NCBI GenBank assembly: GCA_030157865.1 | Contig: JAOATY010000033.1 | Location: 23,507 to 87,506, forward strand | Origin: Candidatus Nanopelagicales bacterium | Lineage (GTDB): Bacteria; Actinomycetota; Actinomycetes; S36-B12; UBA5976 | Direction of reading: 5' to 3' | DNA length: 64,000 nucleotides | The notes under the pieces: model-generated | The model's input: the letters and a program-made list of their open reading frames with translations, nothing else | Database searches by the model: none | What the model was told of the DNA's origin: nothing | Shown: one piece after another, positions 1,368 through 31,342 of the stretch | Layout of the letters: every line of letters begins with the position of its first letter | Position numbering within the stretch: position 1 is the stretch's first letter | Translations under genes and position numbers: made by a program

Positions 1368-3284
1368 ATGAAAAGAACGGGTCGACGTCCAATTGGTGAA
1401 ATCTTTGGCCCTGTCGTTCCGTCAGCCGTTGTTGGTGGGTCAATTGGTTATCTAATTTCCCACAATCTCGTAGGGAGTTTCATAGGTGCAATAGGGCTGG
1501 CTGTTGCCTCAATTCTGGTTCGCAGCACCTTACTCGCGTTAATCGCTATACCCGGTGCGCTCGCACTCGCTTCACTCATTAACACATACGACTCTTTACT
1601 CTTGGGGCGGAGATCGAGTGTTGCTCTGGCATTGGTCATTAGCCTCTATTTCTTGATCTTGATTTTCCAAAGGAAGCTCATCAATCTAAATGAGTGGAGC
1701 TTGACAACCGCTACTTCCGCAAGCAATCTGTCCACAATTGCTGCTGTTCCCTCATTGTTGATAAGTGCTTATTGGGCAAGGGGCACAAATGTCTCCGCAT
1801 TGCAGTTTCTAGCAACAACCGGGGAAGACAATGCCGCATGGCTTGAAGGTTTGGCGAGTGGAATCAAAAATGGCTCTGGTCCAATAGTTTCTCCAGGACT
1901 AGCATTTGGTGGTGGTGAGCACTTAATTGTGCCTCAGGCAATTTTGCAAGTCCTTTTTGATTTCTCGAAGTCTATGCAGCTAGTTGATAACGCCAGGCTA
2001 CTCAAGATTGAATATGGAATTCTCGCAATATTGTTTGTTGCGCTCACAAACTTTATGACCTTGGCGATGATGAAGTCTTTGAGTGCCACAAAACTTGTTT
2101 CTCTAATTACGGTGCAATCTGTGTTTAGCTATGCGCTAATCTCTTCTTTGATTTCGTCAGGTCATTTAACCGCAGTAATTTCTACAATCTACTTATCTGC
2201 AGCGATTGCTCTATCGATCGTTTATCTTGATTCAGACTTAAATGAGAAATCCAAAGTATTGCTTTCTTTTATTGTTGCAGCGCTGATTTATTCCGCAGGA
2301 AAGGTATGGTACCCACTTGCTCCTGCGACAAATTTCATTCTTGTTGCATTCGCAATAAGCTCTCTTGCGATTCGATTTCGCTGGCGACAAATATATGCGA
2401 ATTGTTTAGAATCAAGCAGCGCCTCAACACTGATTAAATCGGCTAGTTATTTCGCATTGTTTCTGACTGGAGCTCTCGCTCTTTACGCAGTAATTGCCAT
2501 GGAATTAGTCACCATTGCAAAGATTAAAGCAGCCACCGCTCCGCTTGGACTGCTTGGAGCAACTGCCAGCGCTTCGGCAGTTTTGTTGATTATTGCACTT
2601 CTGGGTGCGACGTGGTTATTGAGAGATAGGAACTACTCAAATAACTTTTCAAAACTCATCGTCACAACGTTGATGGGATATTTTGTCATCATCGTATTAA
2701 TTTCTTTGATAGCGGCGCCTGGATTCACAATTCGTTATGCGGCTACAAAGTTGGCAGTAGTTCTGTGCGCACTTTTTGTGCCTTACTTTCTAATATTTGT
2801 TTACAGCCACTCTTCTCGAGTTAACAATCTTCAGGCGCTGGTCGTTTCATTTGGATTGGTAGCTGCGTTCATCTTTGATGGTTCATTAGGCCAATTTGTG
2901 AACTTTCCATTGAAGGTGGATAAATCCGTTAACAATGTCTGGAGTGCCGCCGTAGTTTCAGTTGGTTCATTGCAAAAAACTCCGTCGGTTGTTTGCCTGA
3001 ACTCCGATGACAAAGTTCGGAGTTATGAGGCCTACCTTTGCACCCGAATGAGTATCGGGCTTTTTGGCAACTATGGATCTTACAACTTTGCACACAGCAC
3101 TTGGAGCGGTGCTTTGCTTGGTGGTGGAGAGAAAGATTTAATTAAAGACATAGAAAATGATTTCTTTAATGACTTAACTGTTATCGCGTTTGATGGATCT
3201 AAAATCTCGAATGGTGATCCAATTCAAGACATGTGGCTTGAGGAAGTTCCTTGGTCCAAGGTGAACGTTATTGGAATCGGCTAA
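1368..3284 (+). CDS. Polytopic membrane protein, possible GT-C-type glycosyltransferase/polymerase
   Basis: 638-aa ORF with many hydrophobic helices, acidic EDN loop early in the protein, located in glycan cluster. Confidence 0.6.
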   Translation: MKRTGRRPIGEIFGPVVPSAVVGGSIGYLISHNLVGSFIGAIGLAVASILVRSTLLALIAIPGALALASLINTYDSLLLGRRSSVALALVISLYFLILIFQRKLINLNEWSLTTATSASNLSTIAAVPSLLISAYWARGTNVSALQFLATTGEDNAAWLEGLASGIKNGSGPIVSPGLAFGGGEHLIVPQAILQVLFDFSKSMQLVDNARLLKIEYGILAILFVALTNFMTLAMMKSLSATKLVSLITVQSVFSYALISSLISSGHLTAVISTIYLSAAIALSIVYLDSDLNEKSKVLLSFIVAALIYSAGKVWYPLAPATNFILVAFAISSLAIRFRWRQIYANCLESSSASTLIKSASYFALFLTGALALYAVIAMELVTIAKIKAATAPLGLLGATASASAVLLIIALLGATWLLRDRNYSNNFSKLIVTTLMGYFVIIVLISLIAAPGFTIRYAATKLAVVLCALFVPYFLIFVYSHSSRVNNLQALVVSFGLVAAFIFDGSLGQFVNFPLKVDKSVNNVWSAAVVSVGSLQKTPSVVCLNSDDKVRSYEAYLCTRMSIGLFGNYGSYNFAHSTWSGALLGGGEKDLIKDIENDFFNDLTVIAFDGSKISNGDPIQDMWLEEVPWSKVNVIGIG

Positions 3285-25504: not shown

Positions 25505-27520
25505 ATGAACTTGCGCTCCCGTACAACTAGATTCGTCGTCGCTTTGGCGGCTTCGTTGTCATTAGTTGCTGGAGTTGTTGCTGTTCCTGCCACCTCAGCC
25601 TCAGCTAGCTCTGCTGGGGTTTCGGCTGGTGCCAGTATCGGTGCCAAGAAAAAGGTTTTAACGACTGAGCAAAAGAATGCCAAGAAGGCATTAGATGCTG
25701 CGATCAAAGATTTGAAGTCCAAAGAAAAGAGTTTAAAGGCTGCTGTTAAGGCGCAAGCAAAGACTGCGAAGGCTCTAGCTAAAGCTGAGAAAGCCGCCAG
25801 CACCGCACAAGTTCGCGCCGTTAAGGGTGCTTCGAAAAAAGTTAAAGCCAAAGCAAAGGCTGCTGCCAAAGCGCTCGCCAGCGCAAAAGGCAAAAACGAT
25901 CGCGCTGTGAATTTAGTTGCTCGTCGAACAGTTTTGCGTGACACCGCGCAAGCCAAAGTGATTCGCTTGGATGCTAAGTATGCGTGGTTGATTAATGACA
26001 TTTCAACTTTGCAGTGTGGTGTTGGAGACAGTGTGACGACTGCCAGTGGCGCAGTTGAAGTCGTTCGCGAATGCGGCATCGTTTACATGCACGAAGACGG
26101 CGACACTACGCACGTAAAGACAACGACTAACAAGCTTGTTGAGATTCGAAACATTGGTTTGCAGACCCCAGAACGCAAAAAGGGATCTAATGCCGCGCAG
26201 TGTGGTGCCGATGCTGCTTATGAAAACTTCAAGGCATTAATGCCTGAAGAAATCACCATCGTTCAACTTCGTTCCGTTGCTGACAGCACTAATGGTTGGG
26301 GTGGTGGCGCTCGCCCACTTCGTAGCGTTTACAAACTTAACAACGCAACGGGGCAGTTTGATATTGACGTTCAAGCAGAGCAGATCAAAGCTGGTTGGTC
26401 GCTATGGTGGCCACTTGCTGCTGAATGGGCTCACAACAAGGAATACCTTGATCTAATGAACGATGCCAAGGCTCGTGGCGTTGGACTGTGGAATCCGAAT
26501 CTTTGCGGTGCTTTCGGTGGTGGCGTGCCTTCGATGTGGTTTAGCCAAGCTGCGCCGACGATTGATTCAGATACTGAACCAGCTTTTGGTGAGTATGTGA
26601 TTTTGAAGAATGAAACTGGCGCTGCCATGGATCTAACGAATTGGATGTTGCGCGATAACTCGCTTAACTTCTTCTGGAGTGATGCCAACAGTTGGATGCA
26701 GAGCTTGAATAAGTTCGGTTCGATGGTTTTGCAGCCTGGTGAACATCGGATCATCTATTTGGATAATCCAAACGGTTACCCGCTTTCCTCGACCGAGTAT
26801 GAATACTTCAACTGGTCCCGTAATGCGCCAGGTGCTCAGTTAACTAATGGTTCTGTTGGTGCTTCGTTTAGTGCGAACTACATCAATGGTGATGGACTTT
26901 ACCTGCAAGATCCGCGTGGCAACATTCGTAACAGCATGACTAATCCATGCACCAGTGCTGCGATGTGTTCTACTCCAGCTTGGGTTACTGAAATCCTTAC
27001 TCGTTCTGGTCAGATCATTCCGATTCCAGTTGCTTTGAATAAGGTTCGCAATGAATACATCCACCCATCTAATCCAAGCCTGAACATTCCGGGCCGCGAT
27101 ACCTACAATCCAGTTGTTTCAATCGACGCCTCCAAGACTTTCGAGCAGAACAAGGCTCTGCTCGAGGCAAAAGGATTTACCGTAACTGAAGGAACGGCAA
27201 TTGCTTCTACGGTTGCAACAACACACGCTGCCCAAATCACAAATGTGGATGGTGGTGTGGTCACTAACTCTCGAGTTCCAATTGCGGACCCAACTGGAAC
27301 AATTAGAACTGTAATTAAGCTTCACCGGGGCGATGGATCCGTCGTGGTGCCAAATGTTGTTGGGCAGGCTGCGAGTGCGGCATGTGCTGCTTTGGTCGCT
27401 GCCAGACTGGCATGTGCTGTGACCGCTGGTGATGAGGCTAAGGCTGTGGCTTCTACTGCTCCTGCAGCGGGAAGCCTGGTTCAGCCAAATACTGCAGTGA
27501 CCTTGACATACGTTCCATAA
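25505..27520 (+). CDS. Secreted thermonuclease (SNase-like) + lamin-tail-like + PASTA domain protein
   Basis: Signal peptide, K/A-rich helix, DGDT...RNIGLQTPE...AKARGVGLW (SNase), GEYVILKN..DLTNWMLRD (LTD), VPNVVGQ..VTLTY (PASTA). Confidence 0.8.
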   Translation: MNLRSRTTRFVVALAASLSLVAGVVAVPATSASASSAGVSAGASIGAKKKVLTTEQKNAKKALDAAIKDLKSKEKSLKAAVKAQAKTAKALAKAEKAASTAQVRAVKGASKKVKAKAKAAAKALASAKGKNDRAVNLVARRTVLRDTAQAKVIRLDAKYAWLINDISTLQCGVGDSVTTASGAVEVVRECGIVYMHEDGDTTHVKTTTNKLVEIRNIGLQTPERKKGSNAAQCGADAAYENFKALMPEEITIVQLRSVADSTNGWGGGARPLRSVYKLNNATGQFDIDVQAEQIKAGWSLWWPLAAEWAHNKEYLDLMNDAKARGVGLWNPNLCGAFGGGVPSMWFSQAAPTIDSDTEPAFGEYVILKNETGAAMDLTNWMLRDNSLNFFWSDANSWMQSLNKFGSMVLQPGEHRIIYLDNPNGYPLSSTEYEYFNWSRNAPGAQLTNGSVGASFSANYINGDGLYLQDPRGNIRNSMTNPCTSAAMCSTPAWVTEILTRSGQIIPIPVALNKVRNEYIHPSNPSLNIPGRDTYNPVVSIDASKTFEQNKALLEAKGFTVTEGTAIASTVATTHAAQITNVDGGVVTNSRVPIADPTGTIRTVIKLHRGDGSVVVPNVVGQAASAACAALVAARLACAVTAGDEAKAVASTAPAAGSLVQPNTAVTLTYVP

Positions 27521-27530
27521 CTAAAACGAT

Positions 27531-27568
27531 AAAAGGTCCTAGTCATAACGACTGGGACCTTTTGTTTT
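27531..27568 (+). terminator. Intrinsic terminator of the nuclease gene
   Basis: AAAAGGTCCTAGTC-ATAAC-GACTGGGACCTTTTGTTTT. Confidence 0.85.
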
Positions 27569-27572
27569 GGGC

Positions 27573-27635
27573 AAAAAGCAGAGGACCAACCTTTCGGCTG
27601 GCCCTCAAGTTAGGGTACGAAACCCCTAACGTGGT
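27573..27635 (-). ncRNA. Putative structured small RNA, copy 1 (NYN-associated)
   Basis: Minus strand ACCAC-GTTAGGGG-TTTCGT-ACCCTAAC-TT-GAGGGCCAGCC-GAAA-GGTTGGTCCTC-TGCTTTTT, preceded by extended -10 TGaTAAATT; covaries with copy 2. Confidence 0.7.
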
Positions 27636-27758
27636 ACTTCAAATTTATCACGATTGATTCGTGCATCTTGTCTTTCTTGAAAAGCAGAAAACCAGCCCGA
27701 AGACTGGTTTTCAGGTCAGGGGACGAAACCCCTGAGGTGGTGATTTAAATGTATAACG
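27574..27758. repeat. Two gap-free 79-bp imperfect direct repeats (27574-27652, 27680-27758), 106-bp period
   Basis: Manual alignment gives 58/79 identical; most differences are compensatory in stems or lie in loops. Confidence 0.9.
27680..27741 (-). ncRNA. Putative structured small RNA, copy 2 (NYN-associated)
   Basis: Minus strand ACCAC-CTCAGGGG-TTTCGT-CCCCTGAC-CT-GAAAACCAGTC-TTCG-GGCTGGTTTTC-TGCTTTT; promoter TTGAAG-N17-TACATT upstream. Confidence 0.72.
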
Positions 27759-27776
27759 TTTTTTTAAAACCTTCAA
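27748..27776 (-). promoter_or_regulatory. Sigma70/SigA-type promoter for sRNA copy 2
   Basis: TTGAAG (27776-27771) -17 nt- TACATT (27753-27748). Confidence 0.65.
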
Positions 27777-27794
27777 GTAAATCTTTCACCGTAG

Positions 27795-27803
27795 TTATCC
27801 ACA
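27795..27803 (+). promoter_or_regulatory. DnaA box
   Basis: Perfect TTATCCACA. Confidence 0.55.
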
Positions 27804-27879
27804 TGTACGCAATTATGAAAAATGTGTCAGACGGCGGCGAAATAATTGTTTGGTGGAGAGTGGTAATGAATCCGAGCAG

Positions 27880-28593
27880 ATGAGCTTTAATGCGTACATT
27901 GATGGTTTCAATTTGTACAAGGGGGCACTAGAGGCACGTCCAGATTTTAAGTGGCTGGATTTGATTGGAATGTGCAAAGACTTGATGCCCACGTACGAGT
28001 TGAGGAATGTGTATTACTTCACCGCTCCACTCAAGGATCGGTTTGCAGGCGACAAAGCTAACGAGCGTCAGAATACTTACCTTCGAGTCCTTCGCCATTC
28101 AGGTGTACATGTTGTAAACGGAACTTTTCGAACAGACTTCTCGTGGCAGAGACTGGCTAGTAAAGATCGGAAAGAAACAATTCAACCTCACTTGCCACCA
28201 CGATTTGGTCTTACACAAACAGCAATAAATCATTCCTGGAAGGAGGCAGAACCTGATGCGCCGAAGGCAAGAATTGTTTCAATGAAAGAAAAGGGATCAG
28301 ATGTAAACATCGCAAGTTACTTATTACGTGATGCCTACACAAGCGACATTGCTGGAGCACTCGTTGTAACCGGCGATTCAGATCTCAGCACGGCAATTAC
28401 CTTCGCTCGCTCTACTGGTTTGATGGTCAAGATCGGTTTTCCAAATAGGAACCGAATTAGTAAAGACCTGCGGTCCAAAGCATCAGCAAGCGAGACCATT
28501 CATTCCAAAATTCTTAGGGAAAATCAATTCCCTGACACGTACATTTCCACTTCTGGTAGGCAAATAGTTAAGCCTTTTGAATGGCGCCATTAA
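27880..28593 (+). CDS. NYN-domain (PIN-like, LabA/DUF88) ribonuclease
   Basis: AYIDGFNLY, VYYFTA, EKGSDVNIA, VVTGDSDL acidic catalytic motifs intact; ATG 27880 likely (ORF track TTG 27850). Confidence 0.9.
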   Translation: MSFNAYIDGFNLYKGALEARPDFKWLDLIGMCKDLMPTYELRNVYYFTAPLKDRFAGDKANERQNTYLRVLRHSGVHVVNGTFRTDFSWQRLASKDRKETIQPHLPPRFGLTQTAINHSWKEAEPDAPKARIVSMKEKGSDVNIASYLLRDAYTSDIAGALVVTGDSDLSTAITFARSTGLMVKIGFPNRNRISKDLRSKASASETIHSKILRENQFPDTYISTSGRQIVKPFEWRH

Positions 28594-28642
28594 AACCAAT
28601 TGCAATTTGTAATTTTCAAATGCTACTAAGTGCGAAGGCTAA

Positions 28643-31003: not shown

Positions 31004-31036
31004 CTAGTCCGAGTCAAATTTAAGTTCGTAACTCAA
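31004..31036 (-). pseudogene. Remnant 5' end of RelE/StbE-type toxin
   Basis: TTG overlapping antitoxin stop (TTGA) reads MSYELKFDSD*, resembling a RelE N-terminus, then stops. Confidence 0.55.
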
Positions 31037-31290
31037 CGTGCTAGCTCTTCAAGTGTTACTGGGATGGCATTGTCGATGTTCTTTAGGCGCTCCAAGATGA
31101 CTGGTGTGATTTCGCGTTCCCAAAGGATTTCGGCGATCTCATCAAACAGTTCTGGTGGCACAACATAGAACGACGGCTTGTTGTTGGTTAGTACTGCGAA
31201 CGCTTGATTCCCGGCTTTTGCCACGGATTCATTGGGGTTTTTCTTGAATTCGCTGATACTGGTAGTGACTTTTGTTAATACTGCATCCAT
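31033..31290 (-). CDS. Phd/YefM (StbD-like) antitoxin
   Basis: TTSISEFKKNP..AVLTNNKPSFYVVPPELF; RBS AGGAGG before ATG 31290. Confidence 0.9.
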   Translation of the reverse strand: MDAVLTKVTTSISEFKKNPNESVAKAGNQAFAVLTNNKPSFYVVPPELFDEIAEILWEREITPVILERLKNIDNAIPVTLEELAR

Positions 31291-31308
31291 AGTTTCCTCC
31301 TCTCTTCG

Positions 31309-31342
31309 CACTAAATCTAGAGCGAAATTTGGTGTTAGTCAA
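31309..31342 (-). promoter_or_regulatory. Antitoxin promoter with overlapping operator palindrome
   Basis: TTGACT-N17-TAGATT; inverted repeat CACCAAATTT...AGATTTAGTG over the -10. Confidence 0.65.

Follow-up and report, generated by a model that had tools for sequence, protein, structure and literature searches.

Tandem structured RNAs encoded beside an NYN gene

Two short, tandemly repeated RNA-like units sit beside the gene of an NYN-family nuclease, and the question that this locus raises is what such RNAs could be to such a protein. The locus belongs to a 64,000-nucleotide stretch of DNA from a Candidatus Nanopelagicales bacterium, which was analyzed as a whole and is called the window here. 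An earlier note had described two gap-free units, identical at 58 of 79 positions, lying between the terminator of the upstream (SNase) gene and an intact NYN/PIN gene, and had proposed that RNAs and nuclease form a two-part module. The features discussed below are as follows.

27570..27639, minus strand: RNA gene copy 1 (R1 94.8 bits, R2 73.0 bits; −34.4 kcal/mol, z −4.5; terminator-like site)
27642..27650, minus strand: promoter-like extended −10 of copy 1 (TG-n-TAAATT; A at 27635, 7 nt downstream; read from the sequence)
27676..27745, minus strand: RNA gene copy 2 (R1 93.8 bits, R2 75.8 bits; −29.2 kcal/mol, z −4.0; terminator-like site)
27748..27776, minus strand: promoter-like motif of copy 2 (TTGAAG at 27776-27771, 17-nt spacer, TACATT at 27753-27748; A at 27741, 7 nt downstream; read from the sequence)
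27795..27803, plus strand: TTATCCACA box between the RNA genes and NYN (from alignment A11 and a pattern count)
27880..28593, plus strand: NYN (PIN-like) nuclease gene, 237 aa from ATG (from Pfam PF01936, PADLOC HEC-09 and the fold model)
27571..28638, no strand: RNA-RNA-NYN module, ~1.07 kb, borders accurate to a few bases (from comparison with the related genomes G011 and G026)

The description of the two units agrees with our repeat search, in which the only direct-repeat family comprised 27574-27655 and 27680-27761 (82 nt, 73% identical, gap-free, at a spacing of 106). The terminator of the upstream gene is present at 27531-27563, and the NYN ORF is whole, with a score of 31.8 bits against Pfam PF01936 (cutoff 24.2); TTG 27850 and GTG 27853 are other possible starts. 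The protein also matches the PADLOC HEC-09 model above its curated cutoff (E 1.1e-35, 121 bits). A sequence-profile search of the PDB with NYN returned no match, and a fold search was needed instead. With the structure model (pLDDT 91.5) as the query, the top Foldseek matches were 2qip, 6fdl_B, and 5yaa_A at target TM-scores of 0.69-0.72, the best fold matches being the MARF1 NYN domains and 2qip. As modeled, the window protein is of the PIN-like fold with conserved acidic residues; D8, E137, D141, D166, and D168 are invariant in an alignment of 38 sequences and are probably metal ligands. The TTATCCACA box, which we take to be the DnaA-box consensus, is kept in two syntenic metagenome loci (alignment A11).

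On the minus strand, each unit can be read, as had been proposed, from ACCAC through hairpin 1 and an 11-bp hairpin 2 to CUGCUUUU, giving a predicted two-hairpin RNA of ~65 nt. The predicted RNA of copy 1 runs from ~27635 to 27573 (ACCAC, hairpin 1 at 27630-27610, hairpin 2 at 27606-27581 with a GAAA loop, then CUGCUUUUU) and that of copy 2 from ~27741 to 27680 (hairpin 1 at 27735-27716, hairpin 2 at 27712-27687 with a UUCG loop, then CUGCUUUU), so the two different tetraloops reported for hairpin 2 are indeed there. In both units, hairpin 1 has 6-7 bp and a loop with UUUCGU, and hairpin 2 was scored as terminator-like on the minus strand. Alignment A2 bears out the base-pair changes that had been read by eye: one compensatory pair in hairpin 1 (U-A to C-G), two compensatory pairs in hairpin 2 that swap G-C for A-U, and three one-sided changes that pass via G-U. 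The structure had also been called specific to the minus strand, and the minus strand folds more strongly than the plus strand in both units: none of 200 shuffles was as good as the minus-strand folds listed above, while the plus-strand folds reach −23.1 and −24.4 kcal/mol (z −0.95 and −2.0).

The claim that each copy has its own promoter stood in part. The motifs are present, but they hold only 8 of 12 consensus positions, and a consensus promoter scan at a threshold of at least 9 of 12 positions found none before the window RNA copies. In relatives, sigma-70-like TTGACA and TAnnnT boxes occupy the place equivalent to the window motifs, ahead of a 90%-conserved A, and they do so in many loci of every layout class. 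Two sequencing runs that are possibly RNA and one metatranscriptome gave only short contigs within NYN, or none, and are uninformative on transcription.

Dispersed repeats of the REP/MITE kind were rejected as an account of the units, the 1.6-Mb genome to which they belong containing two copies, both at the NYN locus (BLAST and covariance model). A tRNA-like element was dropped after an Rfam scan of the stretch, tRNA model included, gave no tRNA match there, and an integron attC-like site was dropped when motifs typical of attC were not seen by eye.

The RNA belongs to a structured family linked to NYN genes across phyla

A BLAST search with the 198-nt region against 60 relatives gave no match. 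Covariance models were used because the RNA is too short and too divergent for BLAST; the starting model was built from the window copies, and R2 matches were counted within 300 nt of an NYN ORF at E ≤ 0.1. For the protein, a search of genome contigs with the single NYN sequence retrieved no relatives, and alignment A3 was used as the query instead.

An R2 match was found in 77 of the 80 distant NYN loci (L017-L096), which answers an earlier question as to whether the motif recurs beside NYN homologues. The remaining three loci contain matches of 14-18 bits in the same places when filters are off, and the score is at least 33 bits in 65 of the 80. Distant NYN homologues with the motif come from at least ten phyla. 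As a comparison, 40 related genomes without NYN yielded 12 R2 matches, none above 32 bits. In five large genomes, 15 of 17 R2 matches adjoin NYN paralogues, with several modules per genome. The proposal of a two-part module is thus supported as a genomic association.

The covariation first read from two copies extends to the family: 96.8% of 1478 cells are paired, and all 17 pairs have changed on both sides. The covariation score of the motif is 0.685, whereas shuffles score 0.211 and slid partners no more than 0.129. An alignment made with MAFFT only, and hence not fitted to the structure, still has 90.5% of cells paired and both-side changes in 15 of 15 pairs. RNA sequence is kept across phyla in the unpaired 5′ tail, the junction, and the 3′ tail, and the motif has no variable segment. 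No Rfam 15 family matched at or above its gathering threshold. The best match in the window was RF00519 (suhB/mmgR) at 23.6 bits, compared with a gathering score of 41, and a search of 12 distant NYN loci against Rfam 15 gave nothing at the motif. The conclusion that the window units belong to a structured RNA family that is not in Rfam 15, with ~90 examples in many phyla, is well supported.

Arrangement and inheritance of the module

Counted together with the window and L015-L016, same-strand matches near NYN number 69 upstream of the gene and 2 downstream of it; on the opposite strand there are 11 downstream and 8 upstream, and 1 further match falls inside the NYN match. In most loci, the RNA shares the strand of NYN and its 3′ end stops 0-30 nt short of the NYN start. 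Where the RNA is downstream and opposite, its 3′ hairpin lies −1 to 46 nt from the NYN stop codon. The term divergent sRNA array, applied earlier to the window, therefore holds for the window clade but not for most relatives, where a single same-strand copy immediately precedes the NYN start. The RNA lies on the coding strand between promoter and start, as a cis leader would, in most distant relatives and not in the window. The upstream-opposite layout corresponds to two well-supported NYN clades in a quick tree, namely the window clade (support 97) and an Acidobacteriota clade (support 99), and where RNA and NYN are on opposite strands, the RNA is not followed by any gene in its own direction.

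The RNA is single-copy in most loci. Tandem arrays of two or three units, ~106-145 nt apart, occur in L021, L022, L026, L051, L069, and L096 as well as in the window, and each of the copies in L069 and in the window has its own promoter-like motif.

The RNA-RNA-NYN module is present here and missing at the same site in two related genomes, G011 and G026, in which the sites corresponding to ~27563-27570 and ~28637-28639 are joined directly. Both RNA units and NYN therefore constitute a single indel. There are no target-site duplications at the module borders, and a search of 92 other genomes of the family turned up no NYN.

Copies of the RNA in viral contigs

Viral loci were picked by the hairpin 1 pattern and hence are not an unbiased census; among them, seven R2 matches reach at least 38 bits, and six of these lack an NYN gene within 3 kb. 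Prophage or host DNA can be part of IMG/VR contigs. NYN is missing from five whole viral records, one of which is estimated to be complete, and is present in a control record. The RNA of the viral contig L127 is the same over ~100 nt as that of L067, an NYN-linked locus in a metagenome-assembled genome, while the flanks are unrelated. This identical phage-host block also resembles an attachment site. The phage-like contig L014 has an RNA of the window clade without NYN; a search of the viral contigs with the window-clade pattern gave no match.

Viral copies, those of L127 and L135 among them, lie between co-directional phage genes. Most viral copies sit among structural genes (L135 and L117 near a terminase gene, L119 near a major capsid gene), and because of this an attachment site is not favored as their general account; it is possible for L115 and L111, where integrase genes lie within ~2 kb of the RNA and beside it, respectively. 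PHROGs returned nothing for the three ORFs next to the RNA of L109.

What the RNA may do

The explanation that we put forward, plausibly but tentatively, is that a trans-acting RNA is NYN's dedicated ligand and would hold NYN inactive in the manner of a type III antitoxin. In the window, the RNA would be transcribed from ~27741 and ~27635, would end at the U-tracts of hairpin 2, and would bind NYN. Surplus RNA would silence the RNase until its supply drops, for instance when a phage shuts off host transcription; freed NYN might then cut RNA, and the infection would be aborted. Phage-borne copies of the RNA could act as decoys that keep NYN inhibited. The wider extension, a phylum-spanning immune or addiction module in which NYN is checked by an RNA that phages have repeatedly captured as a disarming decoy, is possible but distinctly more doubtful. 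A guide function, the other option raised in the earlier note, is disfavored because the RNA has no variable segment.

A serious competitor, though a rather unlikely one, is that the motif is NYN's own recognition or cleavage site and acts mainly in cis, as a 5′ leader of the NYN mRNA with negative feedback. Stand-alone copies would then be substrate sponges or leftovers, and phage copies would be sites of processing or stability through which phages make use of the host enzyme, a role that suits those lying between co-directional phage genes. The position of the RNA directly before the NYN start keeps this reading alive for most relatives: the 69 same-strand upstream matches, so close to the start codon, leave no room for a second promoter, and in several loci, L065, L048, and L082 among them, the C-rich 5′ end has possible pairing partners in G-rich stretches past the U-tract. 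In the window and 17 other loci, however, RNA and NYN lie on opposite strands, so the RNA cannot belong to an NYN mRNA leader, and these layouts persist through whole clades. Moreover, the RNA's own promoter can be read in many loci of every class, and units of promoter plus RNA are duplicated in tandem, which raises the dosage of the RNA and alters no single leader.

We consider it unlikely that the RNA, instead of inhibiting NYN, is a required part of an NYN ribonucleoprotein, be it as scaffold, activator, or specificity element. The tight one-to-one linkage, the inheritance as one block, and the conserved unpaired 5′ tail, junction, and 3′ tail would all suit such a subunit, as would the lack of defense by HEC-09 when tested; passages of the preprint (bioRxiv 10.1101/2024.01.29.577857) do not state whether the cloned fragment yielded a working RNA. 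Against it, no variable stretch is there to serve as a guide, RNA units outnumber the protein gene through amplification, and phage copies without NYN are hard to square with a host cofactor. Least probable, in our judgment, is an RNA-RNA or DNA-level element that does not involve NYN binding, be it antisense, a terminator-insulator, or a recombination or attachment site. Where the RNA is downstream and opposite, its hairpin borders on the NYN stop, and the RNA would be antisense to the 3′ end of the mRNA, and the block common to L127 and L067 and the integrase genes of L115 and L111 fit a recombination site; yet the window RNAs do not overlap the NYN transcript unless the NYN promoter lies beyond the RNA genes, the module borders are free of target-site duplications, and viral copies are mostly found away from integrases. 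The G-U pairs and the strand-specific conserved tails point to a transcribed RNA.

A dedicated and conserved RNA partner would offer a concrete, testable mechanism for the abundant PF01936-type NYN proteins of bacteria, and it suggests why protein-only tests of HEC-09-type NYN may mislead. For RNA catalogues, the family is a structured one with strong covariation in many phyla and no Rfam 15 counterpart. An arms race at the RNA level is indicated by phage copies without NYN, one of which matches an NYN-linked RNA of a host exactly. Should the wider reading, with phage-captured decoys, be true, it would add a new class to the type III-like toxin-antitoxin systems, along with a viral counter-measure.

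Comparison with known systems

In passages of a 2017 survey (PMC5499597), PF01936-type bacterial NYN proteins appear as proteins of unknown function. A close parallel is HEC-09, an NYN candidate embedded in Hma defense loci, which according to passages of Payne et al. (bioRxiv 10.1101/2024.01.29.577857) has a PIN-like/NYN domain that resembles MARF1 and in which aspartates are conserved, and which gave no protection against the phages tested. The window NYN matches the HEC-09 model but is not within an Hma system, and the preprint handles HEC-09 as a single gene, the terms "non-coding" and "ncRNA" being missing from its main text. Our literature search, at the level of main texts, found no NYN-linked RNA motif, in keeping with the earlier note, which knew of no described system of NYN and a divergent sRNA array. 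RF00519 is likewise a small RNA, which has a terminator hairpin besides a short first one; the window RNA scores below its gathering threshold and is not a member.

The RNase genes rne, rnc, and pnp have autoregulatory 5′ leaders that provide negative feedback. Most members of the NYN family resemble them in having a structured, conserved element directly before an RNase gene. They differ in that the element lies on the strand opposite to NYN in the window and 17 other loci, where it has separate promoter-like boxes, that duplication involves whole units, and that phage genomes carry the element without NYN.

In canonical type III systems, a toxin of the ToxN fold processes an antitoxin made of repeats. 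The window protein is NYN/PIN-like and not of the ToxN/AbiQ fold, and its RNA is a ~65-nt two-hairpin unit, mostly single-copy and conserved in sequence across phyla, which as a rule does not form the direct-repeat array of type III antitoxins. Because the copies examined each carry a promoter-like motif, they are probably not toxin-processed repeats as in ToxI. Opposite-strand arrangements in the NYN family are a further difference. As to a terminator between neighboring RNA and protein genes, the picture is mixed: the commonest layout has one, and the window RNAs point away from NYN and end in their own terminator-like hairpins. The likeness to type III systems (ToxIN, CptIN, TenpIN, AvcID, and AbiF with its RNA) nevertheless extends over several traits. 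The gene of a small structured RNA accompanies that of a nuclease, most commonly in the order promoter, RNA, terminator-like hairpin, protein gene; the RNA is in tandem copies at some loci; the module is patchy and accessory, with several per genome; and NYN is linked to phage defense via PADLOC HEC-09. Finally, the NYN-linked RNA is found alone in phage genomes, to which the pseudo-ToxI of phages is a parallel.

Two structured RNA units beside an intact NYN gene

Between the terminator of the upstream gene and the NYN gene lies a single gap-free direct repeat, whose two units of 82 nt each are 73% identical at a spacing of 106. The features of the locus, in window coordinates, are as follows.

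25505-27520 (+): upstream gene
27531-27563: terminator of the upstream gene
27574-27655 and 27680-27761: units of the direct repeat
27570-27639 and 27676-27745 (-): the two RNA gene copies
27795-27803: TTATCCACA box
27880-28593 (+): NYN gene
31033-31311 (-): 92-aa ORF near an NlpC/P60 gene

Read on the minus strand, both units consist of ACCAC, hairpin 1 (6-7 bp, with UUUCGU within the loop), hairpin 2 (11 bp, capped by a GAAA or a UUCG tetraloop) and CUGCUUUU, in that order. The minus-strand folding energies of -34.4 and -29.2 kcal/mol (z -4.5 and -4.0) are far below those of shuffles, and the plus-strand folds were not clearly better than shuffles (z -0.95 and -2.0). When the two units are aligned, hairpin 1 shows one compensatory pair, and hairpin 2 shows two compensatory pairs and three one-sided changes via G-U. 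The repeat coordinates, folding z-scores and compensatory pairs confirm the two-unit, two-hairpin minus-strand structure described in the earlier note. Hairpin 2 of both units was also called terminator-like on the minus strand. The promoter motifs that the note assigned to each copy are present in the sequence but weak, with 8 of 12 positions agreeing with the consensus; a consensus scan requiring at least 9 of 12 returned no match for either unit's motif.

The NYN ORF is intact, as had been claimed, and scores above the Pfam cutoff. Its structure was predicted with confidence (pLDDT 91.5), the closest folds being the LabA-like protein 2qip and MARF1 NYN domains, and its acidic residues are unchanged across 38 relatives. 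The protein matches the PADLOC defence candidate HEC-09 (E 1.1e-35). The main text of the source describes HEC-09 as a NYN candidate embedded in Hma loci, reports no protection by it against the phages tested, and contains neither "non-coding" nor "ncRNA" (Payne et al., bioRxiv 10.1101/2024.01.29.577857).

The upstream gene encodes a secreted-looking protein of 671 aa with LTD and PASTA domains; it matches PADLOC candidate C3a212 "SNc+LTD" and is kept in related genomes that lack the RNA-NYN module. The 92-aa ORF is, by its look, a candidate Phd/YefM-type antitoxin.

RNA and NYN are gained or lost together

Two congeneric genomes, G011 and G026, have the equivalents of window positions ~27563-27570 and ~28637-28639 directly joined, so that the two RNA genes and NYN count as one indel of ~1.07 kb. 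No obvious target duplication was seen at its borders against these two genomes, and a search at E <= 1e-20 of 92 further genomes from the family gave no NYN match.

The TTATCCACA box, which we take to be the DnaA-box consensus, lies between RNA gene(s) and NYN in three of three loci of the window's clade (at 2602-2610 in metagenome locus L015 and 2939-2947 in L016); it was not seen at the equivalent place in 80 distant loci. It might tie expression of the module to DnaA or replication status.

The RNA recurs beside distant NYN genes

BLAST and a covariance model placed the motif at the window locus only in the organism's own 1.6-Mb genome, which rules out the alternative of a repeat dispersed genome-wide. 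A pattern scan of metagenome contigs yielded three loci: the syntenic L015 and L016, each with a single RNA copy directed away from the NYN gene, and L014, a phage-like 2.8-kb contig with the RNA and no NYN. An alignment-based scan of genome contigs added 80 distant NYN loci, at 30-44% identity and drawn from Chloroflexota, Actinomycetota, Acidobacteriota, Gemmatimonadota, Planctomycetota, Pseudomonadota, Verrucomicrobiota, Nitrospinota, Elusimicrobiota, one candidate-phyla-radiation MAG and others.

A covariance model from the window's two copies alone (R1) gave 43 matches at E <= 1, nearly all directly 5' of a NYN start. A broader model (R2), built from 27 matches, found the RNA at most 300 nt from NYN in 77 of the 80 distant loci (E <= 0.1), bearing out the recurrence beside NYN homologues that the earlier note had anticipated. 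Scores were at least 33 bits in 65 of the 80 (34.5 bits in the candidate-phyla-radiation MAG), and the remaining three loci (L017, L018, L056) scored 14-18 bits at equivalent positions with filters off. Among 40 control genomes of the same genus without NYN, R2 gave 12 matches, all <=32 bits. Of 17 R2 matches in five large genomes, 15 adjoin NYN paralogues and two do not.

The 12 low matches in NYN-less genomes (G017, G010, G036 and others; 22.8-32 bits) could represent common terminator hairpins or remote relatives of the RNA. No NYN lies within 1.5 kb of two matches in cellular genomes G069 and G070, L176 (48.3 bits) and L182 (31.5 bits). In an estuary DNA metagenome (X13), short contigs carry a copy-1-like unit (compare window 27531-27655) with different flanks, at depths of 15-22 versus 6.4 for the NYN-spanning contig, which hints that the RNA is present in other contexts in that community.

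Conserved structure of a new RNA family

Each of 34 sequences folded independently into the same two hairpins. Their MAFFT-only alignment, which is not structure-fitted, has 90.5% paired cells, two-sided changes at 15 of 15 pairs and a covariation score of 0.650 (shuffles, 0.266). A model-fitted alignment of 95 matches, biased towards the model and with four weak or partial rows, has 96.8% paired cells, two-sided changes at 17 of 17 pairs and a score of 0.685 (shuffles, 0.211; slid partners, <=0.129). The motif thus covaries in both alignments. Conserved unpaired elements are the 5' tail A-U/C-C-C/A-CCCC, a UUCG-type hairpin 1 loop, the junction GGG-n-GCGAGG and the 3' tail CUGCUUU.

Rfam 15 returned nothing above threshold in the window (best, suhB/mmgR, 23.6 bits versus 41) and, across 12 distant loci, no match where the motif lies, so the proposed novelty stands against Rfam. 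Full-text literature searches and term look-ups in the main texts of papers found no published link between NYN and an RNA partner.

The arrangement is independent of strand

Among matches near NYN, with the window, L015 and L016 included, the RNA most often lies upstream on the NYN strand, with its end 0-30 nt short of the start codon (69 matches). It otherwise lies downstream on the opposite strand (11), upstream on the opposite strand (8), downstream on the same strand (2) or inside the NYN match (1). No gene follows 3' of the RNA on its own strand in the opposite-strand loci, and there the RNA is therefore not another gene's leader. In a quickly built NYN tree with 83 rows (L060 omitted as too short), loci with the upstream-opposite layout fall into two supported clades, that of the window (97) and one of Acidobacteriota (99), and the downstream-opposite layout needs 1-5 changes.

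TTGACA and TAnnnT boxes 5' of a 90%-conserved A are readable in many loci of every layout class. Besides the window, six loci (L021, L022, L026, L051, L069, L096) have two to three tandem units, and in L069 the promoter is repeated with each of three. Extra same-strand copies occur 3' of NYN in L054 (3171-3236), L028 (3184-3253) and L049 (4273-4342), 56-63 nt from the NYN stop in two loci and 1.1 kb in the third.

RNA copies in viral contigs

R2 matched 25 of 57 viral loci (E <= 0.01), which were preselected by three pattern scans. Since matches to hairpin 1 alone reach 21-31 bits, only viral matches of at least 38 bits were counted. NYN was sought within 3 kb with an HMM of the NYN alignment on six-frame translations.

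Viral RNA matches of at least 38 bits (locus; R2 score; NYN within 3 kb; context)
L109; 60.0 bits; no; none assigned
L126; 58.2 bits; yes; NYN between portal/protease genes and capsid gene
L127; 50.5 bits; no; none assigned
L135; 46.5 bits; no; terminase nearby
L122; 45.9 bits; no; amidase nearby
L115; 43.7 bits; no; integrase ~2 kb off
L117; 38.5 bits; no; terminase nearby

Searched in full, with the L126 record as positive control, the records of L109, L127, L135, L122 (50.9 kb, estimated complete) and L115 gave no NYN; these IMG/VR contigs may contain prophage or host DNA. The RNAs of L127 and of MAG locus L067, the latter linked to NYN, are identical over ~100 nt, and their flanks are unrelated. 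Copies near integrases could possibly be attachment sites.

In L126, a complete RNA and NYN module (2333-3106) lies between portal/S49 protease genes and the capsid gene, and looks like a defence "moron" within a morphogenesis operon.

Interpretation

Linkage to NYN, the two-hairpin structure, layouts on either strand, duplication of units, gain and loss as one block and copies in viral contigs are all observed here. By inference, the RNA would be transcribed, bind the nuclease and hold it back. The reading we favour, at a little short of an even chance, is that the RNA is a trans-acting, type III-like ligand that inhibits NYN. The opposite-strand layouts mean that in those clades the RNA cannot act in cis alone, which argues for action in trans. 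A higher number of RNA units than of protein genes fits an inhibitor needed in excess over NYN, and RNA-only phages fit a decoy, the part that their copies may play.

The RNA could instead be an autoregulatory leader or a NYN substrate, which we consider rather unlikely; as a pure leader it is opposed by the independence of layout from strand and by the copies in phages. That it serves as an obligatory RNP cofactor of NYN seems improbable, and an element acting between RNAs or at the DNA level has only a slim chance. As a trans-acting inhibitor, the RNA would form with NYN an RNA-protein, toxin-antitoxin-like module that resembles type III systems in its inhibitory RNA ligand but differs from them in that its nuclease fold and its RNA family are both new.
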